A DNA stretch of 64,000 nt from a virus. The notes under the pieces are model-generated. The model was not told the origin of the DNA, searched no databases, and was given only the letters and a program-made list of their open reading frames with translations. The translations under genes were made by a program, and so were the position numbers. Where the stretch lies: IMG/VR virus record IMGVR_UViG_3300009285_002342, positions 32,001 to 96,000 of that record, one strand, 5' to 3'. Shown piece after piece: positions 17,024 through 41,957 of the stretch (positions are counted from its first letter, which is position 1; every line of letters starts with the position of its first letter).

Positions 17024-20000
17024 TATTTCGCATTCTCCTTAAATATTTTAGCGAAAATCGCTATCCCCGTTCGAAACTTTTCTAAATTCTCATTCCGATT
17101 CCGCAAGACCCAAGAAGGATGCCCGCACCAGACTACGTGAGCATTTACCTTTTCTACAAATTCAACTTCCCCTATTAATTTCGTTATTCCTTTTTCCCTG
17201 CCGGTTAGAGCGTAAAGGGCTACGCCGCCGGTAGCTAAAATCAACTTACAATTCATACTACGGATAAACGGAATTACCCATTTATTGAAACAGATATCGG
17301 TTTCTTCGCGGGAAGGAGTTCGGGTTTTCGACGGAAAGCACATAGCGCAATTAGCAACATGCACCTGTCTTCTCGTTATTCCGTGTATCGCTAATTCATC
17401 CCAAAGTAGATTACCGGAATCTCCTACATAACCGACGCCTTGTTCATTTTCGGTAGAATTGTGAACAAAAATACCGTTAACTGCAAAATTATGATATTTT
17501 TCAACTTCCATATCGTAAACATCTTCAACTCCTATACATTCAACAGCAACAATCTTATGATTATCGTCTATAGGTATTTCTTCATCCGGAAATCTTTTTT
17601 TAAACAATTCCTTTATTCTTTCATCCGTAATATTGAAAAAGGAACTATTTTTTCTTCCCATTAAATAATTCCAATAATAATTAGGATCTGTTTGAAATTT
17701 TTTCTTTAAAGTTTTGGCCATTTTCTTTTTACTTTTAGAAATTTGCTCAAGCCTTTCTGCATATATCTTTGGGTCTTTAAGCACTTGGCTCATTTTGCGA
17801 CTCAGCTTTCTTCTGTAATTTAAAGAAGTCATAATTTTAGAATGTTTTTCTCTATGTTTTTCATTAAACATAGGATTATTCAAGATTATATGATATTTTG
17901 CGTGATCGGCTACAGAAAGTGACTCTAAATTGTCAAAACTATCGTTATATCTATTCTCATCTATATGATGACAATCTTCTTTATCTTCTAATTTTCTCCC
18001 TAATTTTTGTTCTAATAAAAATCGAGATTCTATAAACATTTCAGTATTAAATGCGCCAATATCATTATATCGATAACTATGGCGATGAAAAGGTTGCAAA
18101 CTATGCCCAATAGTTAACCCGTCCTTTATAGACAAATAATCAACAGTTTCTTGTTTTCCTTTAAACGGATCTTTTTTATTAATAGAATATCTTAATAGAA
18201 ATGGATGATTTTCTGTAACGTTTATCGAACTGGTTTTTCTGATTCTTTCTTTTCCATTAGCAAAATACCATTCATAAGTAACTTTATATACTTTTTTCCT
18301 ACCTGTTTTCCAAACCCTATTGACTTTTCCTAAAACTAATTTTTTGTTTTCTGTATCAAGCGAATAAACATAAAAATCTTTTTGCCCAACTAAATCTTTA
18401 ATAGGAATCCCCGTTAAAGATTTGGATTTATCTCTAAACGCTGTATCTATCAAAGAATCCCCGGTAATACACCCCGGTGCCTCCGCAAGGATCAAAGCGT
18501 TATAGTTTCCGATAGACGGAAGTACAACTCTTGTCGCTTGTTTTCTTAAACCGCAAAGTTCACATTCTTTCGCTTCCGGAACTATTCCGATTTTCTTTAT
18601 GACCGGCAATTTTATTGATTTTCGAGAAACAGAAAATTGAAAATACTTGTTCCAATCCTCCGGTCCTGATTCCGGAATCGTATCGAACGCTTTTATTTCT
18701 TCCATTAACTGCTCTATCTTAGTGGTTCCTACGGCTTGCCTTTTAAAGAAACCTTTCGCTAATCTTTTTGGTTTCATTAATGCACATTTAGCGGCGGCAG
18801 TTTCCCCTATTCCTTTGATTTCAGAAAATGGCGCATAAAGATCGTTTCCTTTTATTTTCCATTTCTTCGTATCGGATATTCCTATCTTAGGCGATACAAT
18901 ACGGAAGCCTTTCTTTTCCGCTTCCGATATCGTCGCGTCTTTATCTTCGCCATAGGTTAAAGTAGCGCAAAGAAATTCTTTCGGATGATTACATTTAAGA
19001 TAGGCGGTTTGATATGCTAATAAGCCGTAACTCGTAGCGTGCGCTGCATTAAATCCGTACATAGCCCATCCCAAAAGATCTTGCCAAAACTTTTCGGCCT
19101 GTCTTTCATTTAAAGTTTTTAACTTCTTACAGCCTTCAAAAAAGGAAATTCTATATGGTTCAAATTCTTTCGGATCGCGCTTCTTGCCGATAACCTTTAA
19201 AACATTATAACCATCGGTAGCAGAAAAACCCGCTAAGTCAATCATAGACCGCATCATTTGTTCCTGATAGGCCATTACGCCATAGGTTGATTTTGTAATT
19301 TCTTCGTACTTCGGATGTAGCGGAATCCATTCCTCGCCATGTTTTCGCTTAACATATAAATCGGCCATTCCCGATTCTAACGGCCCGGGCCTAGCTAAAG
19401 CGCCGATAGCTACAATATCGTTAAATTCATCGGGTTTCATTTCTTTACATAATTTTTTACAGGCATAACCAGACATTTGAAATATTCCGGCGGTATCGCC
19501 TTCCGAAAGCATTTTATAAACCTTCGGATCGTCTAACGGAATATTCTCAATATCCAAATTATCTATTATCTTAACCGCTTCGTCTATAACGACTACGGTA
19601 CTTAGTTTTAAAACGTCAATTTTTACCAGTCCCGCGTGTTCATCGCAATCCACCATATCCCAGTTTATTACAATATTATCGCTACGGCGAACTAAATTGC
19701 CCCTCGTCCCGTCCCTTAGATCTTCTCCGGAAATTATCAATCCTGCTGGATGTCTTCCACTCGAACGGCATTGTCCTTCTAATTCGCAAGCTAAACGGAG
19801 TTGATCTGGATATCGTACTGCAAACTTTCGCCCCTCTCTTGTACTCTCTGCTGCCGCTTTTATAAGTCCGGTAGCATGTCCTTTCCCCTCTATGTTTTTA
19901 GCAAATTCGTCTATATCATTTTCATCTAACTCAAAGACACGGCCTACGTCTCTAACAGAAGAACGACTTTTCATCCTCATAAACGTACTAATTCCTACGA

Positions 20001-21276
20001 CATTATATTCCCCATATTCTTCTACAAGATGTTGTTGTATTTTATCGGTTTGAGTATTATCAAAATCAAGATCAATATCCGGAAGTGATTTTCTATCTTC
20101 GGAAATAAAACGCTCAAATAAAAGATTATATTTTATCGGGTCTATCACTCTTGTTATTCCGGCGAGCATCGAAGTAAGTGAACCTGCAACCGATCCTCTT
20201 CCAGGCCCAACAGGTATCTTCGCTTCCTTACAGTATTGAATCAATTCATAGATAATAAGAAAATAACGAGAAAAGTTTTTATGCTGAATAACTTGCATTT
20301 CCCTCTTGTATCTTTCTCTATATCCTTCGGGCCATCTTTTTCCGAAAATCTCTTCGCCGCCTTTTTCGCATATTTCAGCTAAAATATCTTCGGCGGTTAA
20401 ATCCGGATTCGCCTTTTCGTATCGGGTAAGCGGAAGGGAAGGAATCATTTTAGGAACTCTAAAATCCCAACACTTCTCCGCTATTTCTACTGTTTTCGTT
20501 AAGGCTTCGTAATACTGTTTTCGATTTAAGATATTTTGTGCTTTAAATTCAGAGACCATTTCGTCTGCGGTTCTTAGATGTAAACCTTTAAAACCGAATT
20601 TCCACCTATCCGGATCTTTCCATTTCGCTTGTCTTTGCACAGCTAAAAGAACTTCTTGAGCTTCCCATTGATTTTCGTACACGTAATGGCAGTCGTTCGT
20701 CGCTATAAGCGGAATATTGTATTTTTCTGAAAGTTGTAGACAAAGGTTATTTATCTTAACTTGTGAGGCAATTTGATGTGGCATTACCTCTAAGTATATT
20801 TCTGTTTTTTCGATTAGATCTTTAAAAAGTTCTTCGCCATTAGGCAGATTAAGAAACGAAGACGAACATCCCGTAAGTAAAATTAAACCGGAAAGATCGG
20901 CGCTTCTTAGCAAGGGAAAATCTATTCTCGGTCTACGGTTAAAACCTTCTAAGTTCGCTACGGTTAGCATCCGATTAAGTTCTTGCCAGCCTTGTAGATT
21001 TTTTACTAAAACAGTAATATGTCCCCTAGATTCTTTTCCAGTAGACTTCATATCGGGTACACAATATAGCTCAGTCCCGAGAATTGGCTTTATTCCTACT
21101 TTATCGAAAGCTTTCTGCCATTTTATATGTGTATCTATATTGGAATGATCAGTGATAGCACAGGCTTTAAACCCTAATTCTACATTTCTTTTTGCGTATT
21201 GTTCCGGTTTGCCGATCCCGTCAAGGAGGCTGTATTCCCCGTGCACGTGCAAATGTATAAAATCGGAATTATTCAT
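17023..21276 (-). CDS. dnaE: DNA polymerase III alpha (PHP + polymerase) fused to a C-terminal family-4 UDG-like domain, containing an intein
   Basis: HLHVH..YSLLDG, TDH, GPGRGSVAGS, PDIDLDF, KIDVL, YGFNAAHA, IKGIG; then CELC, AEAPG, C.P, HPS of UDG4. Confidence 0.93.
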   Translation of the reverse strand: MNNSDFIHLHVHGEYSLLDGIGKPEQYAKRNVELGFKACAITDHSNIDTHIKWQKAFDKVGIKPILGTELYCVPDMKSTGKESRGHITVLVKNLQGWQELNRMLTVANLEGFNRRPRIDFPLLRSADLSGLILLTGCSSSFLNLPNGEELFKDLIEKTEIYLEVMPHQIASQVKINNLCLQLSEKYNIPLIATNDCHYVYENQWEAQEVLLAVQRQAKWKDPDRWKFGFKGLHLRTADEMVSEFKAQNILNRKQYYEALTKTVEIAEKCWDFRVPKMIPSLPLTRYEKANPDLTAEDILAEICEKGGEEIFGKRWPEGYRERYKREMQVIQHKNFSRYFLIIYELIQYCKEAKIPVGPGRGSVAGSLTSMLAGITRVIDPIKYNLLFERFISEDRKSLPDIDLDFDNTQTDKIQQHLVEEYGEYNVVGISTFMRMKSRSSVRDVGRVFELDENDIDEFAKNIEGKGHATGLIKAAAESTREGRKFAVRYPDQLRLACELEGQCRSSGRHPAGLIISGEDLRDGTRGNLVRRSDNIVINWDMVDCDEHAGLVKIDVLKLSTVVVIDEAVKIIDNLDIENIPLDDPKVYKMLSEGDTAGIFQMSGYACKKLCKEMKPDEFNDIVAIGALARPGPLESGMADLYVKRKHGEEWIPLHPKYEEITKSTYGVMAYQEQMMRSMIDLAGFSATDGYNVLKVIGKKRDPKEFEPYRISFFEGCKKLKTLNERQAEKFWQDLLGWAMYGFNAAHATSYGLLAYQTAYLKCNHPKEFLCATLTYGEDKDATISEAEKKGFRIVSPKIGISDTKKWKIKGNDLYAPFSEIKGIGETAAAKCALMKPKRLAKGFFKRQAVGTTKIEQLMEEIKAFDTIPESGPEDWNKYFQFSVSRKSIKLPVIKKIGIVPEAKECELCGLRKQATRVVLPSIGNYNALILAEAPGCITGDSLIDTAFRDKSKSLTGIPIKDLVGQKDFYVYSLDTENKKLVLGKVNRVWKTGRKKVYKVTYEWYFANGKERIRKTSSINVTENHPFLLRYSINKKDPFKGKQETVDYLSIKDGLTIGHSLQPFHRHSYRYNDIGAFNTEMFIESRFLLEQKLGRKLEDKEDCHHIDENRYNDSFDNLESLSVADHAKYHIILNNPMFNEKHREKHSKIMTSLNYRRKLSRKMSQVLKDPKIYAERLEQISKSKKKMAKTLKKKFQTDPNYYWNYLMGRKNSSFFNITDERIKELFKKRFPDEEIPIDDNHKIVAVECIGVEDVYDMEVEKYHNFAVNGIFVHNSTENEQGVGYVGDSGNLLWDELAIHGITRRQVHVANCAMCFPSKTRTPSREETDICFNKWVIPFIRSMNCKLILATGGVALYALTGREKGITKLIGEVEFVEKVNAHVVWCGHPSWVLRNRNENLEKFRTGIAIFAKIFKENAK
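17458..18471 (-). mobile_element. intein (338 aa) with HNH endonuclease
   Basis: Starts CITGDS, TENHPF block B, CHHIDENRYND.FDNL HNH, VYDMEVEKYHNFAVNGIFVHN followed by Ser. Confidence 0.92.
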
Positions 21277-22071
21277 TATCGGAAAAATCCTTTGGCTGGT
21301 ATTTTATGATTTTTAATTCTTTCAGAAGCCTTTTTGTACATCTCTTCGTCTTTTTCGATTAGGATATAGTTTCTTTTTGTATTAAGACAAGCAATACCGC
21401 TAGTACCGCTTCCTGCGCAGTTATCAAGAACCAAATCACCTTCAATCGTATATGTTTTAATTAGATATTCAAATAACGGTACTGGTTTTTGGGTAGGGTG
21501 AATGCCTCTTTCCCTAGGATATAATAAAATACTTTCTGGATATTTTGTATCGTATGTTTTTTTTAAAATCTTCTTTTCTACTATTTCCGCTAAATTTAGC
21601 ACTTTCCGAAGAACATTTGTTTGCCCCGTTTTTAATTTTTTTATATCTCGGTATCATTTTTGGAAAATAATTTATGCTCCCAAAACAAAAAACCAAAACA
21701 TCCTCGTGAACTTTCATAGGAGCGTATTTAGCAGTAACAAAATTCCCTGCAAATTTCTTATTCCAAACCCAAGAATGTTTGTAATTGTTAATATTACTCA
21801 TTACTAGCGCTGAAGTAAAAGGTTGAGATGACGTAAGGATTATCGCACCATTATCTTTAATAATTCTCCTATACTGTTTCCATAACGATTCAAAAGGAAT
21901 AATCACATCCCATTTACAGGCGGTAGTGCCGTAAGGTGGATCGCACAAAACCATATCAATACTCTTATCTTCAATATATTTCATCGCTTGAAGACAATCG
22001 GCATTAATAAGGCTGTTTACTGGCAATCGCCCTACGGATATAACCTCTTTAATATTATTAAAAATATTCAT
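21276..22071 (-). pseudogene. N6/N4 DNA methyltransferase (beta class) split by a frameshift at an A8 run
   Basis: DPPY in 21514..22071; HPTQKP and VLDNCAGSGT in 21276..21602; frames join at T8 21557-21564. Confidence 0.85.
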
Positions 22072-22678
22072 TAATTTTCGCTTTTATCAGTTCCCATTCA
22101 CTTTGATTAATATCTACTTTTGTTCTATTTTCTAACCATGAGACAAATTGTAAATTATCTAATAATAACGCCCCTCCGTTACACTTTGCTTTTATATGAT
22201 CTAAAGACGGTTTAATCCATTTATCTCTCGAAACTCGCCATTTTTCTAAAAGGGTATTAAATTTTTTGTCATTATAAAACTTTTCAATAAACTGCTTATA
22301 TATTTCCGTTGTAAATCCGTTACAATCTCGTTTTCTAGAAAGTGAACGATTAAGATATTTTAATTTTTCAATATCTTCAAAACTATTAAGCCATTCAAGC
22401 GATACATCATATTTTAAATGAGATTTCATATTTTTTAATTTAAAATCCCTTGTCATTTTTTTACCCTTTGACCACGCTTCTCTCCCTTTACAAGCTCTAC
22501 TAATATTGTTTTTATGTTCCTGCGTAAATTCTTTAAGAGTGTTCCTTCTTGTTATTTTAATCCCTTCTTTTTCTAATTTTCTTCTAATTAAATGATGATT
22601 TGTATTAAACTTCTCCGCTATCATCCTTAACGTCCATCTTTCTATTTCGTATAATCGAATTATCTCTTTGGTATTCAT
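22058..22678 (-). mobile_element. free-standing homing endonuclease (HTH + NUMOD3-like + HNH-like)
   Basis: EHKNNISRA.KGR.AW.KG, PSLDHI...GG....NLQ. Confidence 0.75.
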
Positions 22679-22720
22679 AATAATTATTCCCCCTATTAAT
22701 ATAATATCCGTACCTTATAA

Positions 22721-22825
22721 CTAAAATAGAAAGTTATATGGCAGATCACAAAGGATCATATCAATAGTCCGGTCAGGAATATTATCCATAAGTTTTAGGC
22801 AATCACCTAACCAAAATTCACTCAA
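22721..22825 (-). pseudogene. truncated 5' copy of the DNA methyltransferase gene
   Basis: (M)SEFWLGDCLKLMDNIPDRTIDMILCDLPYNFLF* vs ADCLQAMKYIEDKSIDMVLCDPPY downstream. Confidence 0.85.
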
Positions 22826-23355
22826 AATTCATTTCTCCAAATTTCCTGAAATCTACCGATAAACATGTTATTCGCTTCTTTCGAAGGAACTCCGAAATTC
22901 CAACTTAACCTTAATCTTGCTCCGCTAATATTCCAAGGCGCAGGTGGTTTCAGCATTAAAGCGTCCATTTCATTTCCTAAGATAACCGTATCCGCAAATT
23001 TTACTTCTTCGGAAAACGGATAGGTAATACCGAACCGATTAGCAATAACGATATTTAACTTTTCTTCAATCTTAGCGTATCCCTTTAGAAAATGTTTAAT
23101 CGGCTTAGGTACATCCAAAAGATACGCTTCCGAGGCATCGTGCAAAAGTCCTTGTAAAGCATATCTTTCGGGAACGTGAAAGGAGACTAAGACAGAATGC
23201 TCAGCGACCGAATAAAACTTACGGCAATGCCCATTATACCTACACTGATTCGACAAGGACCAAGCGATATCCAAAATATCTATTTCTTCTGAACTAGGAT
23301 CTAAAGGGTAGAATTGCTTGCCTGTATAAGTTTGAATCCAGTCGCCTTTTCTCAT
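22822..23355 (-). CDS. HD-domain phosphohydrolase (YfbR/5'-deoxynucleotidase-like)
   Basis: DIAWSLS..CRYNGH..YSVAEHS...LLHDASEAY..D. Confidence 0.85.
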   Translation of the reverse strand: MRKGDWIQTYTGKQFYPLDPSSEEIDILDIAWSLSNQCRYNGHCRKFYSVAEHSVLVSFHVPERYALQGLLHDASEAYLLDVPKPIKHFLKGYAKIEEKLNIVIANRFGITYPFSEEVKFADTVILGNEMDALMLKPPAPWNISGARLRLSWNFGVPSKEANNMFIGRFQEIWRNEF

Positions 23356-23843: not shown

Positions 23844-23847
23844 GATC

Positions 23848-24918
23848 TTATCCCCTTCCCCTTTTCTTCGGTTCGGGTTTTACTTCGGTTTCCACGGGTT
23901 CTTCGGTCGTCGGAGCTTCTTCCTCGTCTGCAATAAGACAGACGGCGTGTCTGAAATTGTCCCCTTCGAAAAGCAAAGCACCGTCAGATACCGTCGCTTT
24001 ATTCGCCTTCGGAATAATCGAAGAGAGATGTTCAGGGGAAGCGACAAATTCAATCTTTTTCCCTTTGTACTTTATCGGGACCGGTTCTATAGCTTTTCCT
24101 TTTATGTTTTCGCACTTCGCAATGATTTCCCAGTTATCTACCGTAATCGTTACCCGCTTCAACTTATTCGATTCTTCGGCTAAAACCTGTACCCTGGACA
24201 AGGCTGCACAAAGTTCTACCGGAAAATCAATCTTCTTTCCTTCTACGTTCAGATATTCGTCTACGTCTTCAAAGTTATCGTCTATCAGCGTATGCGCAAA
24301 GATAGCCCCGTCGTGATTTCGGTAGACGGCTTGCGAATCCGTAATCAGAATTTCCTTTAGCCCGAAGGTAGAAAGAAAGTGTGCGATTTTTGAGGGAATA
24401 AGAATCGGTTTTTCTAAATCGATTTCTTCGGAAAGAATCCTTTCGGTAATACGGAAGTTATCGGAAGACAAAATCCTTTTTCCATCTACGGAAAGACATG
24501 TTAAAACGCCCATAGACGCTTGATCACTCGCGGAGAAGGTACAAAAACCTAATGCTTCGTCGAAATCCTCCGGTAACGGTCGCCAATCCTCCTCTTCAAA
24601 ATCGAAAGAAGGTATATCTTTCGCTTCTACCATCTTCAACCATACTTCCGTCTTTCCTGCCTTAACGTGTAACTCCTTTTCGTCCGCGTCAATTTCCATG
24701 TCTTCCTGGCTGAATTTGTTAAGCAATCTCGTAAATTCATCCGCAGGAATCACCGCCTTTAGATCGGTATCCAAAGGTACGCAAATCGTGATTTCTTCGC
24801 CAGCTCCGATAAGTTTATCATTATCGAAGATTAGCATTCCTGAAAGTTCGGAAATTTTACCGTCGCTTAAAGCCGGTTTTACCTTTTCAATCGCACTTAA
24901 AAGTTCTTTTCGTTTCAT
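23848..24918 (-). CDS. dnaN: DNA polymerase III beta-like sliding clamp
   Basis: RKELLSAIEKV start, SSDNFRI (ATDG.RL-like), three-domain length, acidic. Confidence 0.8.
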   Translation of the reverse strand: MKRKELLSAIEKVKPALSDGKISELSGMLIFDNDKLIGAGEEITICVPLDTDLKAVIPADEFTRLLNKFSQEDMEIDADEKELHVKAGKTEVWLKMVEAKDIPSFDFEEEDWRPLPEDFDEALGFCTFSASDQASMGVLTCLSVDGKRILSSDNFRITERILSEEIDLEKPILIPSKIAHFLSTFGLKEILITDSQAVYRNHDGAIFAHTLIDDNFEDVDEYLNVEGKKIDFPVELCAALSRVQVLAEESNKLKRVTITVDNWEIIAKCENIKGKAIEPVPIKYKGKKIEFVASPEHLSSIIPKANKATVSDGALLFEGDNFRHAVCLIADEEEAPTTEEPVETEVKPEPKKRGRG

Positions 24919-25643
24919 TCTTTCTCCTTCCGTTTAAGTTTTCTCTCCTTTAGTGGTCTTACTGGAATTATTCCGAATCCTAGATTTATTTGTTTTACTT
25001 TAGTCAAATCTTCATATCTCTTAGATTCACCTTTAGGATAATGTAAAATCGGAAATCTAAGATGTTTCCTTGCTTCCTTTGCCCATCTTTTATCGCCATG
25101 AAAATAAATATATCTATGTTTAGGTTTTTGAGGAATTCTTTCTTCTATTTTTCCTTCGTATCTTTCACCGCGAATTTTTCCAGTACAAGATCTTCGATGA
25201 ATTATTTTCCCTTCAGTAGTAAGATATTTCCCTTCGTTAAAAGATCCTTCTCCGGTATAAATCCAATTTAGAGCTTGATAAACATAACCTACATGCCCTT
25301 GATTTTGGTCTGCGTAACTCACAAGGATAAGAGGTTTAGGTAGCAATTTTATTGCATTAGCAGCAAAAAAGGTGGCAAGATTTTTTCTTTCTGAATAATC
25401 AATACAAAGCCGGTTAAATTCTAAAACAGTATCTTTATAATCTTTTCCGCAAACAGAAGCCCCTAAATTCCTATTAGGGCAATATCCAAAAGTCGCTACA
25501 CCTATCGTTCTATTTTTTTCTTTTTCGACCAACGCAAATCCATAAATATTCACTGTAGGCGCTCTACCTGCATAATGCTTTTTTAAAAGCCATTCTTTTG
25601 CTGCCAAACATGGAATCGAAACTATCCGGAATTTATCTTTCAT
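24915..25643 (-). CDS. Mom-like DNA (adenine) modification enzyme
   Basis: KKHYAGR, GVATFG, LEFNRL, SYADQNQGHVGYVYQALNWIYTG; likely start ATG 25643 after AGGAAGG. Confidence 0.8.
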   Translation of the reverse strand: MKDKFRIVSIPCLAAKEWLLKKHYAGRAPTVNIYGFALVEKEKNRTIGVATFGYCPNRNLGASVCGKDYKDTVLEFNRLCIDYSERKNLATFFAANAIKLLPKPLILVSYADQNQGHVGYVYQALNWIYTGEGSFNEGKYLTTEGKIIHRRSCTGKIRGERYEGKIEERIPQKPKHRYIYFHGDKRWAKEARKHLRFPILHYPKGESKRYEDLTKVKQINLGFGIIPVRPLKERKLKRKEKE

Positions 25644-25645
25644 AT

Positions 25646-25740
25646 CCTTCCTACGCTTCGTAGAATCGCTTAGGTTAAACGATCTATCGCTAACCCATAA
25701 TACCCTACGGGTAAAATATTTGAACGCCTTAAAAACGATT
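25646..25740. repeat. dispersed bipartite palindromic element, copy 2
   Basis: CCTTCCTACGCTTCGTAGAATCGCTTAGGTTAAACGATCTA-N35-GAACGCCTTAAAAACGATT. Confidence 0.88.
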
Positions 25741-25773
25741 AAGCGAAGAATCCGCTTCGTTTCCCTTTTTTCT

Positions 25774-25956
25774 TCAATTCTGACATTTGGTAAGTTTTCC
25801 TTGACAACCTTTAGCACCGCATACATTAGGCAAGACCCAACGAAACTTTTTATTTTTCGCTACCCAAAAACCTTGCTTCGAACCGCATATTTCACATTCA
25901 TACCAAGTAGTCTGTTTCTTCTCTTCTTCAGTTTCTTCGTCCCTACACATTTGCAT
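25774..25956 (-). CDS. small zinc-ribbon protein upstream of the mom-like gene
   Basis: CEIC and C....C; AGGAG SD before MQMC. Confidence 0.55.
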   Translation of the reverse strand: MQMCRDEETEEEKKQTTWYECEICGSKQGFWVAKNKKFRWVLPNVCGAKGCQGKLTKCQN

Positions 25957-25967
25957 TTTTAACTCCT

Positions 25968-26093
25968 TTACATACCCCAATATGCCGGCGAAGTCACGCA
26001 CATATCAGCTATTCCGGAAGGTAGGGATTTTAAGACATCTATATTGTGCCCTAAATATATTTTAGAATCACCGAATTCACGATAAGGTTTCAT
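25968..26093 (-). pseudogene. 41-aa N-terminal stub of an N4/N6 DNA methyltransferase
   Basis: MKPYREFGDSKIYLGHNIDVLKSLPSGIADMCVTSPAYWGM* (TSPPYW-like motif). Confidence 0.75.
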
Positions 26094-26851
26094 ATTTTTG
26101 ATCTTACCTTCCGAATAGCAATAGGATTCATTTTTTTCTTAAACGCACGTAAAGACTCGTTCCCTAAATCCCCACAATCATTTACGTATTTTCCGTTTCC
26201 GTATTCTGCCACTTCCCGATAAAACAGCAACCTCATATATTCAGCTAAGTACGGTTCCGCTAAACAAATTGAATAGCGGAAAATTAGATATTTGAAATTC
26301 TCATCCCAAACATTTAAGCCGACAACTTTCTTCCTCTCCATGTCTATCAGAACTTTTCGATTTTTACCGTTTAGACAAAAATCTAACAATACTTCCGCAT
26401 CTTCAATTTGTCTAAAACGCAAAGTCCATTCCGTTAGAAGATCGATAATCGGCGTTACAGGATGCCCCACTACGGCACGAAGATAAGTTAATTTCGGATT
26501 TCGGGCAACGAACTTCCGACTATTTTTACGAAACACTGCCCACTCCCCTCCTTTCATAGTGAGAAAATCGGCAGGATCGTAAATATACTCATAGTCAAGA
26601 AATTCGTTGCCCAACGGGCATTCCGGAAAGTCAGCCCAAAAAGGAGAGTCTTTCCAAAGTGGATTGCCCATTTTTCGGATAACCGGAAACAGTATTTGTT
26701 TTCCCTTATCTTCAACCCAAACTTCGCTTCCGGTATCGTAAACACGAAATTCGGCCCTATCGAAATATTCCTCCGAGCACCAGCAATTCGGCGTTATTCC
26801 GTTAAGGCGAAGAATTTCTAAATATTCTTTCGGACTAATCAGTTTTTTCAT
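26090..26851 (-). CDS. DUF2156 / phosphatidylglycerol lysyltransferase C-terminal-like (GNAT-fold) transferase
   Basis: DYEYIY...L.MKG..W..FRKN..KF and YVND.GDLG..SLR.FK..MNP. Confidence 0.7.
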   Translation of the reverse strand: MKKLISPKEYLEILRLNGITPNCWCSEEYFDRAEFRVYDTGSEVWVEDKGKQILFPVIRKMGNPLWKDSPFWADFPECPLGNEFLDYEYIYDPADFLTMKGGEWAVFRKNSRKFVARNPKLTYLRAVVGHPVTPIIDLLTEWTLRFRQIEDAEVLLDFCLNGKNRKVLIDMERKKVVGLNVWDENFKYLIFRYSICLAEPYLAEYMRLLFYREVAEYGNGKYVNDCGDLGNESLRAFKKKMNPIAIRKVRSKI

Positions 26852-27699
26852 TATCTTCGAAGAAACCCCGTTCCTTTTTGCCTTTTAACGGTTTCTTTTC
26901 TTTCTTCGCCTTCTCTGCTATCAGCCGTTGAATCAGCTTCTTCGACACCCCGCCCGATTTCCTCGATTTCCCGCCCATTTTCTTCCTCCTGTATTGATTC
27001 TAAGAAACATCCTTCGTCATACAGACAACCCGCGACAATTCCTTTCATTCCAAACTTATCCCCTTCGATTACTGCAAAATCATTCTTCTTACCGAAGAAA
27101 AACTTTACAGTATTCGAAAATGTAAAAAGGGCTAAAAGATCGGCGGTCCTTAATCCTATCGGCCCGAAGTCTTCTTTTATCGTCTTCCCCCATGATACCC
27201 CGAAACCCTCTTTCACTTGCGTTAATTCTACGGTAGAACCGGAATAGATGTCCCTTTGTAGAAGAAGCGGTTTCCGATTCTTAGCTGAAACCTCAATATG
27301 ACTAAGGCTTTCTTCTAAAAGAGAAAGAACTTCGGTATGCAAATCCAAACGGTTATCGCCTTTTTTCTTATAAAGTTTCCGAAAAGAATCATCTATTTCG
27401 TCAAAAGTCCGCTTAGAAGTAGCACAAGATTTTTTTCTTACGAAACCAGCGGCGTTTTGCGTAAATACAATTTTCCCGTCTATTAACTTAAAATCCGGCG
27501 AATCGTACTGATTAGATTCCATACCGATCTTTTCAGGAAATTCTTCTTTCGAATCAAAATGCAGAATAACTGTATTGTCGAAGTTGGCTATGTAGATAGA
27601 CTTATTTCCTAAGAAGACTTCGTTTCTTAAATGCCCATTTTGAGTTAAGACTACTGCTATAGAAAGTATTTTTTCGGTCATTTGATTAATCATAAACAA
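26851..27699 (-). CDS. second, divergent sliding-clamp-like protein (tentative)
   Basis: Clamp-like alpha/beta pattern (IYIANFDNTVIL; L.SLSHIEV; PIGLRTADL), acidic tail ending GTGFLRR. Confidence 0.4.
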   Translation of the reverse strand: MFMINQMTEKILSIAVVLTQNGHLRNEVFLGNKSIYIANFDNTVILHFDSKEEFPEKIGMESNQYDSPDFKLIDGKIVFTQNAAGFVRKKSCATSKRTFDEIDDSFRKLYKKKGDNRLDLHTEVLSLLEESLSHIEVSAKNRKPLLLQRDIYSGSTVELTQVKEGFGVSWGKTIKEDFGPIGLRTADLLALFTFSNTVKFFFGKKNDFAVIEGDKFGMKGIVAGCLYDEGCFLESIQEEENGREIEEIGRGVEEADSTADSREGEERKETVKRQKGTGFLRR

Positions 27700-29099: not shown

Positions 29100-30079
29100 A
29101 ATGGATAGTTACTTTCTATTTCGGCAATTTCGTCATCGGCAAGTTCTATTTTTACGGATTTAAGATTGTCTTTTAGATGCTCTAAATTATTTGTAGCTGG
29201 AATTGGAAGGACACCTTTCTTGCTTAAAAGCCAAGATAATGCAATTTGTGGCGATTTGCCTCCCTTTGATTTTGCTATTTTGTCTAAAATTGGTTTGTGT
29301 AATTTCTTATATGATTGCCCCAAAGGGCTATAGGCAATAACCAATATCCCCCTTTCTTGACAATACGGCAATAAAAATTCTTCTATACGCCTATCAATAA
29401 GCGAATAACTGACTTGAACGGAACGTATAACGTCACCAGAAAAATCAGAAAGAAATCTTTGCATTGATTCAATCATATCTACCGAACAATTACTAAGACC
29501 TATAGAAAGAATCTTGCCCTTTTTACGCAATCCAACTAAAGTTTTACCTAAAACCTCGTCCGAATACTTATCGTTAGGAAAGTGAATTTGCAAATGGCTA
29601 ACCCTTCCTAACTTTTCTAAAGATCTTGAAACGGTAGAAGTAAGTGCAGAAGATGACATATGATCCCTTCGAACTTTTGTAGCTACGGGAATTGAAATGT
29701 TTTTTAGTGCTTTCCCCAATTCTGTTTCTACCTTACCGTATCCGTATCCTTCTGCGGTATCTATCAATACAGCGCCGAAATTTACCGCTTCTTCTATAAG
29801 ACTATAATCATATTTCCAACCATATGTCCCGAAACCAATACCGCATTTACATTCGATTTCCATTGGTTTAAAAGAAATATCCTGGTGGTCTAAAAGTTTT
29901 TCTAAACGCCTAACCGAATATTGAAGTAATTCTTTTCTTTTAATCAAAAGCGCAGAAGATAAAGACATATAGCGTAGATTAAGTCCCCACATCGATCCGT
30001 GCAAAACATCTGAAGCCCCTGCGCTTAATTTCTTATCAAAAGAAAAGTTTTTTATTTCGTCAAGTATTTTTAACCACAC
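29096..30079 (-). CDS. aldo/keto reductase with N-terminal extension
   Basis: GFGT, IDTAEGYG, ATK, QIHFP, IGLSN, IAYSPLG, QIALSW, PIP. Confidence 0.9.
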   Translation of the reverse strand: MWLKILDEIKNFSFDKKLSAGASDVLHGSMWGLNLRYMSLSSALLIKRKELLQYSVRRLEKLLDHQDISFKPMEIECKCGIGFGTYGWKYDYSLIEEAVNFGAVLIDTAEGYGYGKVETELGKALKNISIPVATKVRRDHMSSSALTSTVSRSLEKLGRVSHLQIHFPNDKYSDEVLGKTLVGLRKKGKILSIGLSNCSVDMIESMQRFLSDFSGDVIRSVQVSYSLIDRRIEEFLLPYCQERGILVIAYSPLGQSYKKLHKPILDKIAKSKGGKSPQIALSWLLSKKGVLPIPATNNLEHLKDNLKSVKIELADDEIAEIESNYPL

Positions 30080-30789
30080 AATCCAAAACCTTTCAATTTT
30101 GCTTTCTTTGGTTTGAATTCTTCATGCCCCCTAGAAACAAACAAATCGGAAGGTTGAATATGCGTAATCTTTCCTTTTTCATTTCCATACAAAACCATAG
30201 CGGCATTCATAAAAGCGGAAACAGCTATGAGATTTTTCCCAACAATCGGTTTTGTTTCCTTAGCCAACAATTCGTAGTATTCCTCTTCGGTTTTAACGCC
30301 ATAATGACGGAGATTCCCGAACTTAAAACCAAAACAAGTGCTATCGGCTATTATAACCCATTTTGCTGTTTTCGCTACTCTTGACAATACTTCGCTATGT
30401 CCAGGCAACTTACGCAAAGTAAAGGCGTCAAAATCCAAAATTAGAATGTCCGATTCCGGCGGCGTCCAAGAATAAACATCGTTATTCAATACAGTGTGGT
30501 TTGGAAAATTACTTTTCAAAAAACCACAACAATTTTCGTCCTTATCGTTAATAATCAATTCACAATCAGTCCATCTTGTTAACGAAACAGCGCACCAAAA
30601 ACCAGATCTAGCTATAGCGTCTACGATTTTTGGTTTCTTTCCACAATTTATTACAGACAAAACTGCATCAAGCGTTCTACAAGTTTCCGCTACATCACGG
30701 TACGGAACAACTTGGCTAGGTGTCCTTATCTTTCTTTCTGTCCCTGATTCGGGAATGTCAAGTTTTATTTTTCCTACGGAATAAATCAT
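30070..30789 (-). CDS. SAM-dependent methyltransferase-like Rossmann protein
   Basis: IVDAIARSG (motif I-like), INDKD, NDV, ILILDF. Confidence 0.5.
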   Translation of the reverse strand: MIYSVGKIKLDIPESGTERKIRTPSQVVPYRDVAETCRTLDAVLSVINCGKKPKIVDAIARSGFWCAVSLTRWTDCELIINDKDENCCGFLKSNFPNHTVLNNDVYSWTPPESDILILDFDAFTLRKLPGHSEVLSRVAKTAKWVIIADSTCFGFKFGNLRHYGVKTEEEYYELLAKETKPIVGKNLIAVSAFMNAAMVLYGNEKGKITHIQPSDLFVSRGHEEFKPKKAKLKGFGLCG

Positions 30790-31911: not shown

Positions 31912-32586
31912 TTAGACAGGGGCTACAGTCTTGGGATCAATCTTGGATACCTTACCGAATCCTATTGCACAAGGCATCATTACATCGACAAGATGTTTCG
32001 ACTGTTTAAGGTTATCCTTACCGCCGCCAGAAACATAATCGTTATTGGCGAGTTCGGCCAAATCATCAATGGAAATTTGACACTTGAGATTATTGACGAC
32101 ATCAATGAACGATTCGGTTCTTGTCTTCTTGGAAGACGTTGCCTTCGGTGCTTTCGGTTCCTTCGGCGGCTTAGGCGGTTTTTCAGCCTTTGCCAGTTTT
32201 TCTACCTTTTCGGTTTTCGCGGGTCTACCACGTTTTCCCTTTTGAACAGGCGGATCTTTCGGAAGCTTCTCTCTGGCCAAAAGGATTGCTGTCTTTGCAT
32301 CGTCCAGTCCCAACTCCCCGAGCAGCTCAACGGTTTCGTCGCTCAGATTCGCATCCCCCGGCGTCTTCTCCGGATCGATTAGTTCCGCTGCTTCCGTAAC
32401 CAAAGCGGTCAACTTCTCGATCAGCGCATCTTCGCCTTCCGCCTCTGCCTTCGCGATTGCTTCCTTTCGCGCCTTTCCCTTTACCCCGTCCTCTACCAAA
32501 CACCCGTAGGTAATGTCGATAGGCGGTTTAAGAACAAGAATCCGATTCATGTCCTCTGCGGCGTTTTGCAATACTTTAAGTTCCAT
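31912..32586 (-). CDS. Lys/Pro/Ala-rich nucleoid-like protein with AT-hook
   Basis: KRGRP, PKPPKEPKAPK; own promoter and hairpin. Confidence 0.6.
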   Translation of the reverse strand: MELKVLQNAAEDMNRILVLKPPIDITYGCLVEDGVKGKARKEAIAKAEAEGEDALIEKLTALVTEAAELIDPEKTPGDANLSDETVELLGELGLDDAKTAILLAREKLPKDPPVQKGKRGRPAKTEKVEKLAKAEKPPKPPKEPKAPKATSSKKTRTESFIDVVNNLKCQISIDDLAELANNDYVSGGGKDNLKQSKHLVDVMMPCAIGFGKVSKIDPKTVAPV

Positions 32587-32648
32587 ACCGTTTCCTCCTT
32601 TTTCCGTTAAAGTTTTTTATCGGTAAAAAATTTACCCTATCCAATGAT

Positions 32649-32677
32649 ATTATAACGAAAAAATTAAATATTTTAAA
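32649..32677 (-). promoter_or_regulatory. promoter, class II (TTTAAA-N17-TATAAT)
   Basis: Exact spacing; repeated architecture. Confidence 0.75.
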
Positions 32678-32734
32678 GGCGCACGGCGATTTTTTTATAA
32701 AAAAATTAAATAAAAAATTCCGGGAGGTTACGCC

Positions 32735-33540
32735 TTATTTTCCCCAATGCTTGCTTTCAACCCCCCCAATAATATCAAATCCTTCCTTCGTATTATAAAC
32801 TCCCTTCGCATCATACCAATTTTGCAAAAATTCTTCAAACGTATTTTCTATCGCCCTACCTTTTAATTTCCCGTTCCAAAGTTCTAACATTGCTCTTTCA
32901 AACGCTCTGTAAATTCCGGGCCATCTATCCATATGTTTTTTAATAACTTTGGGTCTTCCACATATAAACGGACAAACAACACAACCAACTCTATCGAAAC
33001 CCTGATCGTAAAGTTCGCAATAAGGTAAATTATATTTTTCAATATATTCCCAAATTGCCCATTCTCCCCAATTAAAAATTGGTTTATATAGAGTCTGTTT
33101 TTTAAAATACCGGTCTATTCTTGGTCTATTCGCTCTTTTGGCAGATTCTTCTTTTCTAATACCCATCAATCTTCTCTCAAGAGAAACCTCTTTAGTTGGT
33201 TTTTTCTTTAACTCGTCACAACACCACCTTGAAAACTTTGTAGGAAATCCTCTTATCGGAATCAATTCATAAAATGATTTTTCAGGTTTTTCCATATTAC
33301 ATCGGAATGATTCCTTTTTATAAACTTTACAACTTCCGGCGGATCTATTCCGGTAACGGAATAATAAGTCTGAAATTTTACGCCTGAACGTTTAGTTAAA
33401 TCTTTTAAGACGCAAGAATCCTTTCCACCGGAAAATCCTAAAAAATAACCTTCCAGAGGTTCATTTTTTTGGATAAAGGTTATCGCTTCCTCTTCGTATT
33501 TTTCCAGAAAATCTATAAACCCTTTAGTTGTTTTTCTCAT
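32735..33540 (-). pseudogene. PAPS-reductase-family protein split by a frameshift at an A5 run
   Basis: FSGGKDS PP-loop in 33262..33540; RWCC.ELK, GIRKEES..R, PI.NW, RVGCVVCP in 32735..33295; junction 33287-33291. Confidence 0.85.
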
Positions 33541-35114: not shown

Positions 35115-35148
35115 ATATGGGAAACTTTCTTTAAAGGTTTCTGCATCC

Positions 35149-35833
35149 TTATCCCCTTTCGAATCTTCGTTTTTTCGGTAGAAGCGAACAACCTTTATCG
35201 CACTCTAAGGAAATCCAAGATTGCGCTACTGACCAAGTATAATTAACCAAAGCACCGCAAAGCGGACATTTATCCTGTCCTTGAATATAGTCCGCAGTAT
35301 TATCTCGGAAATGTTTAAGTTTACGGGAAAGAAAAGTCGGTATAGATTCCGTTTGTACTGCGGACTTTTTGAGTAAGCCGAATCCGGTCATAGTTATTTT
35401 CCTACGAAGAAAATACATTTTTGCGGATAAAGCCCGTCTTCGCTCATCGGAATCATCTTATGAAGAACGGAACCTTTCTTATTCGCTTCTTCATAGTTCC
35501 AAAGCATATGCGCCGTTAGACAGGGGCAACAGAAGTCTTCAAGGTTATGAACACATTTATCACAATATATTTCTTCGTAACGCATACCGATTGTACCATT
35601 AGCAAAATAAGCCATTGTTATTTCTCCTTTTCCCACCATCTATTTCTATTCGGAAGACAACCAGAGTTAATATAAAGAACGGCATCGTATAAAGCGTCCC
35701 GATATCCACCGTTATATCCTTCGCCGGATAAACCACGAGAATATAAATCACCGCCTCTAATAGATTTTGAAATATCTTCTTGTACATTTTCTGCTACTTT
35801 GGAAAGTTTGCAGACGATTTGTTTTTTAGTCAT
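35149..35833 (-). CDS. three small ORFs (35149-~35391, 35394-35639, 35618-35833)
   Basis: Cys-rich small ORFs; operon packing. Confidence 0.5.
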
Positions 35834-37388: not shown

Positions 37389-37550
37389 TTTTCCGTTATC
37401 CTCCGTAATTTTATAATGGAGGCCGGAAAAACTGGTGGAGTGTTTCCGTGCAATCCTTCAACCTCCTGCTATAAGGTCAAAAGTTAGGGGGAGATAGCAG
37501 CTCCCCCTCTAGTTGAAACGCCTTCACGGATGATCAGTCCGCGAAGAAAA
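37389..37550 (-). promoter_or_regulatory. structured 5' leader of the initiator gene
   Basis: Four hairpins, loop-to-downstream complementarity CTGCTAT/ATAGCAG, CCTCC/GGAGG SD-sequestering stem. Confidence 0.55.
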
Positions 37551-37728
37551 AGAAGGGAAATCTTCCGTTTCCGGAATTATCTATAAATACTACGGGAAAA
37601 ATAAAAAGTAAAGAAAAATCTTTTCTAATTACTTCCGATAGTTACCGTTTAGAACGGAATTTAGAAGTATGCAGTCAGAATAAAAAGAATTCCGATAAGT
37701 CCTAATAGGAATACCTTCCATCTTTCCG

Positions 37729-38991
37729 TTATTCCTCCAATATTTGAACGGAAACAATTTTAACTATCGTTTTTCTTTTTTCTATTGTGTCAAGAATTTT
37801 TAATATTCTATCTCCAATAGGGTTGGGATCAAAGTTTTCAACGTTTATCCCGTAAGTTTTTAGAACTCTTTCTATAGTAGAACAAATTCCAGATTTCCCA
37901 GAACCCGCAGAACCGGTAACGGTAATGATTATCTCGTTTTTATTTTTCATTATTCTTTTCCTTTCTAAAGAATTTTCCGCACGTTCCACACTTCGGCGTT
38001 AAAGTCCGATAACCGCTATGTATTGGGCACTTTTCGTTTGGTTCGTCCGCTAAAGCGTAACAAGTACAATAAATCGTTTCTTTGCAAATATGGTTTTTCA
38101 TTATCCTCCCAATGCTTTTTCGCAAAGTTCTACGATTTTATTAGCCGCGACTTTTCGTTCTAATAAATTACCGGAACACCAATCTCGATAATAAGATATC
38201 TGACAAGGAAGTTGATCGTAGCTATTTTGAAGAGAATATACGCAATTTTCCGGCTCTGGTTGTTTAGGCCATACTAAGGGGCAAAATTCTAAACATCGAT
38301 CTTTTCTTGGAAATTCTTCTGTCTTTTGATACAGATATTCACAGCAAGGACAATAACTTAAATAGTTTTCTGATTCTTTTATTAAAGATTTGTAAACACT
38401 ACCTGTTTCCGCCAATTCCGCCCAAATTCTTTTTGTTTCTTCTAACGCCTTTGTTTTTGTAAGTTTCATATTTCCGCCCTTTCTGGATGAATTGAATGTT
38501 CGGTTTCGAAGAAGGAAAAACCCTCCGCTATATCCAAACAGTTACTGCAATATTTACGGCAAATTCCTCTCCCGGTCCATTTAAATTTCAAGTAGTGGAA
38601 TTTGCCGCACCTCGGGCAAAGGCACTTTACCGAACCCTTACCTTTCTTGCTCATTGCCGTTTTCCTTTAAACGATTGATTTCTTTCAGAAGAACTCGTAG
38701 AATATCTTCGAATTCAAGATTTGATCCACAAGGGCATATCATATCTTCGTGAAAACGGTATCCTATCTCTAAAAGAAGCAACGTACAGTCCATGTGAAAC
38801 CATTGACAATCACAAAAATCGCCATTGAAATTTTCTATTAATTCATCGTATTCATTTATGTGAGAATGATTTTTACATAAATTAAGTTCCTGTTCTATTT
38901 CTCTAGGACAAGTTCTAAAACTATTTGAACATTTCCCGTCCAGCCTTTCTACCAGCGTTTCCAGAATTTTTAACCTTAATGAATTTTTCAT
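37729..38991 (-). CDS. cluster of small Cys-rich hypothetical ORFs (37729-37989, 37940-38125, 38101-38469, 38466-38654, 38638-38991)
   Basis: Overlapping minus-strand ORFs. Confidence 0.5.
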
Positions 38992-39893
38992 TTTCTCCTC
39001 ACTTCCTTCATTATTTCATTAGCCCATTCATCCGGTATCGAACCGGAATCCAAACCTTCTCCTACCGGCCCTAACTTTACAATTTCTTTACCGAAAGCGC
39101 TTAATTCTGCTTCCATTCTGTCTCCCATTCTTTCTCCAGCAGGATCTCCGTCTCCGAATAGAAAAAACCGTTCAAAATTATTAATTAGCAATTTTAATTG
39201 TTCCGGTCGAAATTTAACTCCGAACGTAGCTACCGCACCTTCCCCTAAACGCCACACTCCAGTTATTCCTTCGACTACCGCTACGGATTTCCATTTAGCT
39301 CTATCGAAACCATATAAAACGTGTTTATGATGTCTAACTTCCCAATCTTCCGGACAGCCAATATATTTATGTTCGTCTAAATCGGTAATGTCCCGCGCTT
39401 GCCATGATACCGTTCGGTTCCGGAAATTTATCGGCGCTACGATTCGATTTGGATATTCGCCCCATTCTGCTGTTCCCGATAATCCGTATTCCTTTTCTAA
39501 TTTTTCGGGATCGAATTTTCTTCTTTCTAAATAGCGTTTATGCTGGGTATTCATAGAAATTAGCGAAGACGGAAATTTTAAACGTTCGCGTTTCGTCCGT
39601 AGGGAGATAGGGGGAAGGTAAAGATCGTTCGTGTATCGGGCTATTAAACCCCTTAGAATCGATATTTCTTTAGGGTCCGTTCCCGATAAGGCGGAAAATA
39701 CTTCATACAATGATTTTTTTTGACACCGATAACAGGTAGCGAAACCTTTTTCAATGTTTAACCCAAGATGAAAACCTGGGCTTCCGGTACAAAAGGGGCA
39801 AGGCACTCCTACCCATCCTTTACGGTAGTGTTTGTTTCCGGGCGGAGCAGTCGGAATTCGATAGTCAAGACAAAATTGCCGGAAGTCAATCAT
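38988..39893 (-). CDS. DNA primase (Zn-finger + TOPRIM)
   Basis: CPFC..CYRC, WQAR, VVEG, DGD. Confidence 0.88.
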   Translation of the reverse strand: MIDFRQFCLDYRIPTAPPGNKHYRKGWVGVPCPFCTGSPGFHLGLNIEKGFATCYRCQKKSLYEVFSALSGTDPKEISILRGLIARYTNDLYLPPISLRTKRERLKFPSSLISMNTQHKRYLERRKFDPEKLEKEYGLSGTAEWGEYPNRIVAPINFRNRTVSWQARDITDLDEHKYIGCPEDWEVRHHKHVLYGFDRAKWKSVAVVEGITGVWRLGEGAVATFGVKFRPEQLKLLINNFERFFLFGDGDPAGERMGDRMEAELSAFGKEIVKLGPVGEGLDSGSIPDEWANEIMKEVRRK

Positions 39894-39920
39894 CGCTTTT
39901 CCGATATAGGTTAAAAGACG

Positions 39921-40015
39921 TTCCTAGGCTTCGTAGAATCGCTTAGGTTAAACGATCTAAATTTTTCCGATAAAGGGTACGGATAAAATTTTTAAATCGA
40001 TTCTAGGGGATTCTA
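39921..40015. repeat. dispersed bipartite palindromic element, copy 3
   Basis: TTCCTAGGCTTCGTAGAATCGCTTAGGTTAAACGATCTA-N34-AAATCGATTCTAGGGGATTCTA. Confidence 0.85.
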
Positions 40016-40381
40016 CGTAGATTTCTTAAAAATCGGTTCGTACCATTCCGGTTTCTTCGTGATTAAAACCATACGATAAAACCAGTGAGTTGCTTCGTCT
40101 AAGACCCAAGGCGGGTTAATTGGTGAATTAGGAATTTTGTAAGGTAGAAGTTTCGTTCGTATTCCATCAGCTAAGACTGCTCTAAGGCCGACATTGTAAT
40201 AATCTTTTAGGGAATCTACGTATCCTGCCCATCGCTTTACGTTCGGATGCCTAGACCATCCCGTAGTTCCTTCTAAGGCGCTTACGGATTGCATCGCCTC
40301 TAAGACCTGTTTCCATTTCCGCTTTGGATCTAAGACGGCATAACATTGTTCATAATCTTCGTATGGAATAAAATGTTGCAT
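40013..40381 (-). CDS. pyrimidine-dimer DNA glycosylase / endonuclease V-like protein
   Basis: MQ.F.PY....LD.KR..KQ..EA.Q...HP...W.GY. Confidence 0.7.
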   Translation of the reverse strand: MQHFIPYEDYEQCYAVLDPKRKWKQVLEAMQSVSALEGTTGWSRHPNVKRWAGYVDSLKDYYNVGLRAVLADGIRTKLLPYKIPNSPINPPWVLDEATHWFYRMVLITKKPEWYEPIFKKST

Positions 40382-40382
40382 A

Positions 40383-41957
40383 TTAATTCATACTCCTTTT
40401 CCTACGCATTTCGCGGGCCATTTCCATTGCTTCTTCATTAATTTTAATAGCAACATCTCTTTGAATCAGTAATTCGGCAGCGGTCTTCTTCCTGTTTTCT
40501 TTTAATATTTTAATTTGAGATTTAATCGCAGAAAGATCGCCGTCAGTAAAGTCTGAATTATCGCAAGTCGTAACATAAACCAATAATTTAAATTCCTTAT
40601 CGCATTTTTTACAATATTTTACTCTTATATTTAACTCCGAACCAAAACCAGATATCGCTACAACTTGATGATTCCCGCAGAAAGGACATTTTATATTTGG
40701 GCAAAAGTTAGTATCGTTGCTCATTATTTTCTCCTTAGTAATCCAAATCCCTTTTCGGGAATAGAGTTTAAACAGGATTCGCCTTTACGATGCACATAGC
40801 GCAAACCTTTATCGGGAATTCTACGAAGAAAAAGCAACCTTCCGCATCTTGGGCATCTTACTGATTTTGGTTTCATAAGATTTTAAGATATTTGCATTTT
40901 ACACATTCTTGCTCATGCTTTCGGATCTTACACAAAGAAGGGCTCGTCCAATAACCTTTCGCAGGGCAATTAAACGCAGAAGATAAAGTATATTTATAAC
41001 AAGAATCATTAGAAGGTTTTATGGTTTTACCATTACAAATTCCTGTAACTGCCGGAATATCCCCGCTTCGGTCCGCTTCGTAGTATCGCGCACACATTCC
41101 GCAAAAACCTTCGGCAGGGATATTCCGGGTAAATCGGCTACGGGTAAATCGACTCATTACAATGTTTCCTGTAATTTAAGAAGACATGATTCGCAGACAT
41201 TCTTAGTAGTCGAAACCCGGACAAAATTTGGATAGGAAATTACCGTAATACGATAGGTAGCAATCTCTTTATGGCAGACCATACACGGAAAATCTTTCGG
41301 TTCTGTAGGCGTCCAAGTTTCCCAAGTAATCGGTTCTATCTGCATGCTTCCTCCTCGAAAGATTTAAAAAGAAGACGTTTGCGCTGGTAAGTTTCGAAAT
41401 CGGGAAAGATTTCAAAGAAAAGCATAACCATTTCTGGTTTAACTTGGCGTGTTACTTCAAGAGTCATATAGAGAATTTCAAAAAAATCTTTCTTAGGTTC
41501 AGATAAGGCGCATAAAACTTCCGTTTGAACTTCTGGTTGAATAAAACGTCTGAAAAGGATTTCTCTACGTTTTGAAAGATTTTTTTCTTCATTACGCTTA
41601 TGTGCGATTTTCTGTTTTTCCTGAATTTCCCGTTTCCGTTTTTTATCTACCTTTCTCATTTTTCCCCTCCTCTCTATATTTTTCGGCTTCTTTCTTGATA
41701 TATTTCTCGGTCGTATCCCCGGAATCGGTCCATTCGACGGCCCGCCAAACTTCCGAAAGTTTATTTTTCCTTTCCGTCAATTCATTAATTTTTTCTTTAA
41801 TAAATTGAACGTCGTTAAGGATTGATTTAGTATCCAAAGCAATATCCGGATATCCTCTATGTTCTAAAGACAGCGCCATCCGTTCTAGGTCTTCTTCTGA
41901 ATTTAGAAGATCTTCGCCGTCTTTACAGTAAAGATAGTTAAAAGATCCACCGCTCAT
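40383..41957 (-). CDS. cluster of small early hypothetical ORFs (40383-40724, 40873-41157, 41157-41345, 41336-41659, 41643-41957)
   Basis: Contiguous ORFs behind the 42000 promoter. Confidence 0.55.
40724..40876 (-). CDS. 50-aa zinc-finger protein (Com-like N-terminus), not in ORF track
   Basis: MKPKSVRCPRCGRLLF...KGFGLLRRK*; overlaps neighbours' start/stop. Confidence 0.55.
   Translation of the reverse strand: MKPKSVRCPRCGRLLFLRRIPDKGLRYVHRKGESCLNSIPEKGFGLLRRK

Follow-up and report, generated by a model that had tools for sequence, protein, structure and literature searches.

Terminal Gly-Phe peptides of phage DNA-modification enzymes as a probable Gln-less dialect of the beta-clamp-binding motif

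Are the DNA-modification enzymes of a phage recruited to a replication clamp by a shared terminal peptide? The question was raised by a replication and modification locus in a 64,000-base stretch of DNA (the window), which comprises bases 32001–96000 of a 115,125-base IMG/VR phage record (IMGVR_UViG_3300009285_002342). The original prediction was that DnaE and the modification enzymes share a Gly-Phe peptide, mostly terminal, which serves as a private clamp-binding motif. All the peptides quoted in it were present at the places given, on the minus strand, which also carries all the window features described below. The peptide was found in the disordered ends of four proteins, namely a Mom-like enzyme, an N6/N4 DNA methyltransferase, a 239-residue enzyme, and a 47-residue basic protein. 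It was a real, conserved short linear motif, kept in homologues with variable linkers between, positionally equivalent to canonical clamp motifs, and co-varying within genomes. The peptide occurred as GFG[LI][LIC] and, in an alternative form, as [KR]GFF. On balance it is best explained as a lineage-specific dialect, mostly without Gln, of the bacterial beta-clamp-binding motif Q-phi-x-[LM]-[FL], through which the enzymes would be tethered to a clamp hub.

The bacterial beta-clamp-binding motif is QL[SD]LF, or more generally Q-phi-x-[LM][FL] and the hexamer Q-phi-x-[LM]-x-[FL] (Dalrymple 2001, reviewed in PMC11139829). The Mom-like DNA modification enzyme (24915–25826; Pfam Mom, E = 6e-33; phrog_1384) carried the sequence (K)QINLGFGII at 24969–24995, immediately past the Mom domain and with a basic tail behind it. 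Among its relatives (at least 38% identity), 26 of the 28 distinct tails fitted a relaxed clamp motif (TQxLLF or TQxxLF; e.g. TQGLLF, TQTLLFG, and TQxKLF) and 7 of the 28 matched the strict published motif, while the control open reading frames (ORFs) of the same loci gave 8.4% and 0.5%, respectively. The QINLGFGII of the window stood exactly where these relatives have TQxLLF or TQxxLF, and its QINLGF part satisfied the published hexamer (PMC11139829).

The N6/N4 DNA methyltransferase is split, and its C-terminal half (21276–21602; phrog_67/18293) ended in NHKIPAKGFFR (motif 21279–21293). At the position of KGFFR, the relatives ended in VTQLDLFEEVE, KQMSLF, SQMTLF, or SQLNLL, or had NHEPLLxL. 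An unrelated methyltransferase of the related genome G004 terminated in NKPLF.

The 239-residue enzyme (30070–30789) was modelled as a class I S-adenosylmethionine (SAM)-dependent methyltransferase fold, with an AlphaFold2 (AF2) predicted local distance difference test (pLDDT) value of 90.8 and methyltransferases as its Foldseek matches. Its disordered tail (pLDDT <50) ended in KLKGFGLCG (motif 30073–30093). The 40 homologues (40–61% identity) had a conserved SRGGKxYK segment, followed by a variable linker and then by the terminal peptide. About 20 close relatives ended in GFGLCG, GFGLV, GFGLL, GFGL, GFGI, or GFGF, and distant relatives ended in [SP]LF, SLFD, or PLFD. The motif thus lay outside the folded domains in all three enzymes, those of the Mom-like enzyme and the N6/N4 methyltransferase being located past the ends of the Pfam/PHROG domain matches. 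The comparison of the three homologue families supported the proposed link to clamp-type motifs, in that three unrelated enzyme families had the GF peptide at the place of the textbook beta-clamp-binding motif of their relatives.

The peptide also changed in concert between proteins. Seven related viral loci and a further two from metagenomes shared a module of radical-SAM enzyme, reductase, 239-residue enzyme, a second clamp-like protein (clamp-2), and DnaN-like clamp. In any one genome, the terminal peptides of the 239-residue family and of the unrelated 47-residue small ORF were alike: GFGL and RGFF, respectively, in the window (G000), GFLDL and GLDL in G001, RLGL in both proteins of G002, GFFD and GLLD in G003, TPLF and QPLF in G004, PLLF and QPLF in G005, and KSLF and KSIF in L030. 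Permutation of the genomes gave P values of 0.007 (k=4) and 0.05 (k=5) for the peptide similarity. In G004, five regional proteins, including one DNA methyltransferase, had [PT]LF at or near a terminus, and PLF was the top enriched terminal tripeptide. A peptide that unrelated proteins share, and that changes together on them, is the mark left by a docking site used in common.

The 47-residue basic protein (26835–26978), which begins with MGGKSRKSGGVSKKLI and ends with ERGFFEDNEKTD, was a conserved but unannotated ORF and was absent from the original prediction. It overlapped the tail of the clamp-2 gene in the +1 frame, with RGFF at 26859–26870 and an AGGAGG sequence 7 nt 5′ of its ATG codon. 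The ORF was found in 8/8 related genomes, and its C-terminal motif matched the type of each genome. Its first 16 residues were almost identical across genomes in which clamp-2 was only 35–39% identical. Further homologues ended in NRGFGLAKDES or contained GPLFKGFGEE. The protein is possibly an adaptor. Its reading frame also accounted for the C-terminus KGTGFLRR of clamp-2, previously listed as an instance, which was a frame-0 echo of ERGFFED in the small ORF, encoded by the same G- and T-runs. A GF tail was absent in all 23 clamp-2 homologues, and the clamp-2 tail was not conserved.

Terminal enrichment of the motif depended on the pattern used. The whole-genome statistics covered 187–192 ORFs. 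Plain GF was not enriched, with 6 occurrences among the ten C-terminal residues, where per-protein shuffles of 187 ORFs predicted 5.0. The extended patterns were enriched: [KRT]GF[GFL] was seen 4 times in the last 10 residues against 0.14 expected, a count reached by 0/400 shuffles of the whole-genome set, and GFG[LI] had only 4 occurrences in the 35,897 residues encoded by the whole 115-kb genome, none of them more than 21 residues from a protein end (P ~0.003, post hoc). Since both patterns were chosen post hoc, these values were taken as a lead only. An unbiased search for enriched exact terminal 3-mers, which picked PLF in G004, did not pick the degenerate GF motif in the window genome. 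The codons beneath the motif varied among its instances, and therefore a DNA-repeat origin was ruled out.

Two further instances of the original prediction were withdrawn. The KGFF of DnaE (residues 841–844; 18745–18756), together with its flank KGFFKR, had been taken as the clamp motif of the polymerase. It aligned with GGPFKS of Thermus (Taq) Pol III alpha and corresponded to the canonical G-x-F after the helix-hairpin-helix (HhH), a structural element; the relatives had GFF (L002 and G001) or GAF (L003) at this site. In E. coli DnaE, the known internal clamp motif is located further downstream. A conserved KYFxF sequence (KYFQF, KYFHF, or KYFGF) occurred ~55 residues past the HhH in three DnaE relatives, and in the window it was located at residues 877–881 (18634–18648). 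By its position, KYFxF is a better candidate than KGFF for the internal clamp contact of DnaE. The GFG of a 224-residue protein (31912–32586) was likewise set aside, being part of a conserved C-terminal domain.

A Gln-less dialect of the known motif is a better reading of the peptide than an unrelated motif, and natural Gln-less clamp ligands exist, such as AMSLF of the delta subunit (PMC11139829). Several points weigh against this assignment and against the hub that goes with it. The peptides GFGL[LC], GFGII, KGFFR, and RGFF lack Gln and place Phe at the aliphatic (phi) position, so that most of them failed the strict motif, and the flanks of the window motifs were basic, whereas those of known motifs are mostly acidic (PMC11139829). 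The motif expressions were set after inspection of the data. The co-variation rested on eight genomes only, which are phylogenetically related. Scans for relatives of two small Cys-rich candidate carriers of 50 and 80 residues gave no usable homologues. Furthermore, the polymerases of these phages had no visible shared terminal peptide, which would be odd if the replicative clamp were the hub.

In the proposed mechanism, two hydrophobic residues of the peptide would insert into the pocket by which a sliding clamp binds peptides, and this clamp would most likely be the DnaN-type clamp of the phage itself (23848–24918). Bound to it, the modification enzymes would travel along DNA just after its replication, in the manner of DNMT1 and PCNA. 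Because the peptide stands at the canonical docking-peptide site of the relatives, a tether between DNA modification and a replication clamp is probable. Clamp binding, the choice of hub, and coupling to the fork are what we infer from these comparisons. The private or orthogonal character given to the motif by the original prediction is speculation.

The phage did encode a DnaN-type beta sliding clamp, as had been claimed. The 356-residue protein matched phrog_947 (E = 2e-30) over residues 2–323, and its family profile matched 48 solved beta clamps (E = 3e-21). The protein had 2933 relatives. The pocket element SSDNFR was located at the position of the bacterial T-D-G-H-R-L element (SsDnfR aligned to ATDSHRLA), and its D and R were almost invariant in 80 relatives. 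In E. coli, residue H175 bridges two subsites of the clamp (PMC11139829). The equivalent residue was F, F, Y, Y, H, D, W, and M in the individual genomes, with Asp in the genome of the RLGL type. The DnaN-like clamps of these phages were strongly divergent (19–28% identity), whereas clamp-2 was far more conserved. A DnaN-type clamp is favoured as the hub over clamp-2 or the host clamp because the ancestral peptide forms correspond to bacterial beta-type motifs, because the DnaN-like clamps diverge strongly and clamp-2 does not, and because the H175-equivalent residue varies between genomes. A complex prediction of the DnaN-like clamp with the clamp-2 core and a 32-residue tail of the 239-residue enzyme gave no verdict (score 0.00, run without controls) and is evidence neither way. 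The window clamp also had a 25-residue Pro/Glu-rich C-terminal extension (residues 332–356; 23848–23925) ending in KKRGRG, which was absent from seven related clamps.

A different hub could be clamp-2 (26851–27699), acting as a dedicated modification clamp with its own loop motif as a pseudo-ligand. The clamp fold tentatively assigned to this protein held up because a confident two-domain model (AF2 pLDDT 82) was obtained for residues 1–227, followed by a disordered tail, and because the best Foldseek matches were PCNA chains (E = 5e-9; template modelling (TM) score 0.45–0.53). Its predicted fold suits a hub, and its gene was located between the radical-SAM gene and the motif-bearing small ORF in every related genome. 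Such a hub would also fit clients that are modification enzymes and polymerases that lack the shared tail, and T4-type PCNA-like clamps likewise bind C-terminal hydrophobic peptides. However, clamp-2 was far more conserved than the DnaN-like clamps, keeping 19 invariant polar residues while the motif changed between genomes, and the Mom and methyltransferase relatives in phages without a clamp gene had canonical bacterial beta-type motifs. A clamp-2 hub is therefore considered unlikely.

The loop KEGFGV of clamp-2 (27196–27213) was exposed and was the lowest-confidence part of the fold. In the relatives, the loop contained KGLF, KGFF, EGMF, or GLFF and tracked the same motif types of the genomes. 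By this loop, clamp-2 looks like a client or a carrier of a pseudo-ligand. The 19 invariant residues of the family were mostly polar (LSHIE, QRDIYSG, GLRTNDF, CLYDE, two Cys, and one His), and since this is atypical of a sliding clamp, it suggests that metal binding or catalysis may be built on the clamp fold.

The peptides might instead dock on the host beta clamp, alone or besides the phage clamp, in host-driven replication or in competition with host clients. No clamp gene was present in three near-complete 34-kb phages whose Mom had a canonical terminal motif, and therefore Mom in these phages must use the host DnaN; the same observation points to a hub of the DnaN type. The fit of the window Mom tail to the bacterial hexamer and the precedent of phage Mu MuC are also in line with host-clamp docking. 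However, the window phage encodes its own clamp, a clamp-loader-like ATPase, and DnaE, and most of its motifs were Gln-less and divergent from the bacterial consensus, so that docking on the host clamp is as improbable here as a clamp-2 hub. A product of chance and composition, arising from a proteome rich in Lys, Gly, and Phe and from post hoc choice of patterns, or another role of the tail such as a C-terminal degradation signal, is very improbable, for although plain GF was unenriched, three earlier instances were echoes or structural elements, and GFGL was also found in non-coding frames, the motif was kept at one place in homologues of 40–60% identity across variable linkers, was equivalent to canonical QLDLF and TQTLLF tails, and co-varied within genomes, and a C-terminal degron does not explain motifs that are N-terminal, in a loop, or followed by 6–16 residues.

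The dialect reading can be set beside known clamp systems. Like the bacterial beta-clamp motif, the peptide is a short hydrophobic sequence in disordered termini and loops, and it would serve numerous clients of a single hub; the textbook forms are found on homologues of the window enzymes, namely QLDLF, QMSLF, and TQTLLF, and the window Mom fits the hexamer. It differs in that most window instances are GFG[LI][LIC] or [KR]GFF, without Gln, with Phe at the aliphatic position and with basic flanks, and in that its carriers are DNA-modification enzymes. Clamp-binding peptides are known on polymerases, Hda, MutS/L, and ligase, and a 2024 review lists no methyltransferase or DNA-modification enzyme among the partners, while noting that the client list is probably incomplete and biased to Gln-containing motifs (PMC11139829). 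In phage Mu, MuC/Mor has N- and C-terminal clamp motifs (QHDLF and QPDLF), which is a similar case of a non-polymerase phage protein with terminal clamp motifs, and a late function is thereby coupled to replication (PMC12867686). MuC is, however, a transcription factor on the host clamp, whereas modification enzymes and a phage-encoded clamp are concerned here.

A phage-encoded clamp that serves as a tool-belt is known from T4, in which gp45 is a PCNA-like trimer bound by the C-terminal peptides of gp43, gp33, and gp55. The likeness lies in a phage-specific terminal peptide and in a polymerase together with non-replicative clients. The gp33 and gp55 clients are transcription factors, whereas the clients proposed here modify DNA, and the favoured hub is DnaN-like. 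The nearest analogy is found in eukaryotes, in which DNMT1 is tethered to PCNA through a PIP box, so that nascent DNA receives its modification at the fork. By analogy, a DNA methyltransferase would be placed on a replication clamp in the phage too, with another clamp family and another motif. A literature search found no bacterial or phage equivalent of the DNMT1–PCNA coupling and no report of clamp motifs on Mom, phage DNA methyltransferases, or hypermodification enzymes; two dedicated Mom papers are silent on clamps.

If the peptides do bind a clamp, Mom-type adenine hypermodification, N6/N4 methylation, and the radical-SAM pathway would be physically coupled to replication, which would explain how phage genomes are fully protected before host nucleases meet naked DNA. 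This would be a prokaryotic-virus counterpart of DNMT1–PCNA and would enlarge the list of beta-clamp clients. A wider version of the dialect reading, possible but tentative, is that clamp-encoding phages have genome-specific peptide dialects (GFGL, GFLDL, RLGL, and PLF) co-evolving with a hypervariable clamp pocket. A semi-private tool-belt would then tether the whole hypermodification pathway to the fork, including the Mom-like enzyme, the methyltransferases, the radical-SAM module via clamp-2, and the 47-residue adaptor, and the clients of clamps might more generally include Mom-like enzymes as well as many DNA methyltransferases of phages. Motif dialects paired with divergent clamps would offer a natural series for studies of hub–motif co-evolution, and the terminal peptide a cheap sequence marker of replication-coupled enzymes in unannotated phage genomes.

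Two small Cys-rich proteins of the Zn-ribbon kind, together with the clamp-2 loop, are probably carriers of the peptide as well. A 50-residue Cys/His-rich protein (CxxC...H...C; 40724–40876) ended in EKGFGLLRRK (motif 40736–40753) and is a candidate client. A Shine-Dalgarno origin of this motif was rejected, as the AAGGAG of the next gene overlaps RR(K) only and GFGL is located 24 nt upstream. An 80-residue protein with four Cys (35149–35391), a second candidate, has the N-terminus MTGFGLLKK (motif 35371–35388) if its second ATG, which is preceded by AGGAAA, is used. In the PAPS-reductase-like protein, the tail EGFDII (32768–32785), 15 residues from the end, is also a candidate, as is the N-terminal instance TTKGFIDF; this protein had no homologue among the related genomes.

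Nearly all genes of the window were oriented on the minus strand, and the region of 17–41 kb contained DnaE, the split N6/N4 DNA methyltransferase, the DnaN-type clamp, the Mom-like enzyme, a radical-SAM enzyme, an aldo-keto reductase, PAPS-reductase-like fragments, DnaB, and primase. No relative was found in a scan of 185,579 bacterial genomes, and no match came from phage databases, queried with clamp-2 as well as 12 kb of DNA, or from a viral scan using clamp-2. The gene of the N6/N4 methyltransferase (21276–22678) consisted of two overlapping ORFs adjoining a NUMOD3-type endonuclease gene, and that of the PAPS-reductase-like protein (32735–33540) of two ORFs with a 34-nt overlap. Frameshift, homing-endonuclease damage, and programmed recoding are candidate causes of both splits. 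About 25 of the 57 distinct tails of methyltransferase relatives at loci L099–L178 ended in NHEPLLxL or NHEPLFHL. This recurring peptide is similar to QPLLI, the clamp motif of MutL, and is a possible further dialect of the clamp-binding motif.

The DnaE of the window (17023–21276) was a single fused ORF of 1417 residues, in which a domain of the uracil-DNA glycosylase (UDG) superfamily was split by an HNH intein; the usual OB and tau-binding C-terminus was missing. The L002 DnaE (L002:977-1750) terminated in TDIPF, which recalls the tail of SSB. In G002–G005, L009, and L030, the DnaE fusion was replaced by a UDG-exonuclease subunit and a separate PolA palm directly behind the clamp gene. The UDG-exonuclease subunits of the PLF-type relatives (L008:19429-20664 and L009:16174-17388) had the N-termini MEEGFFT and MEGFFT.

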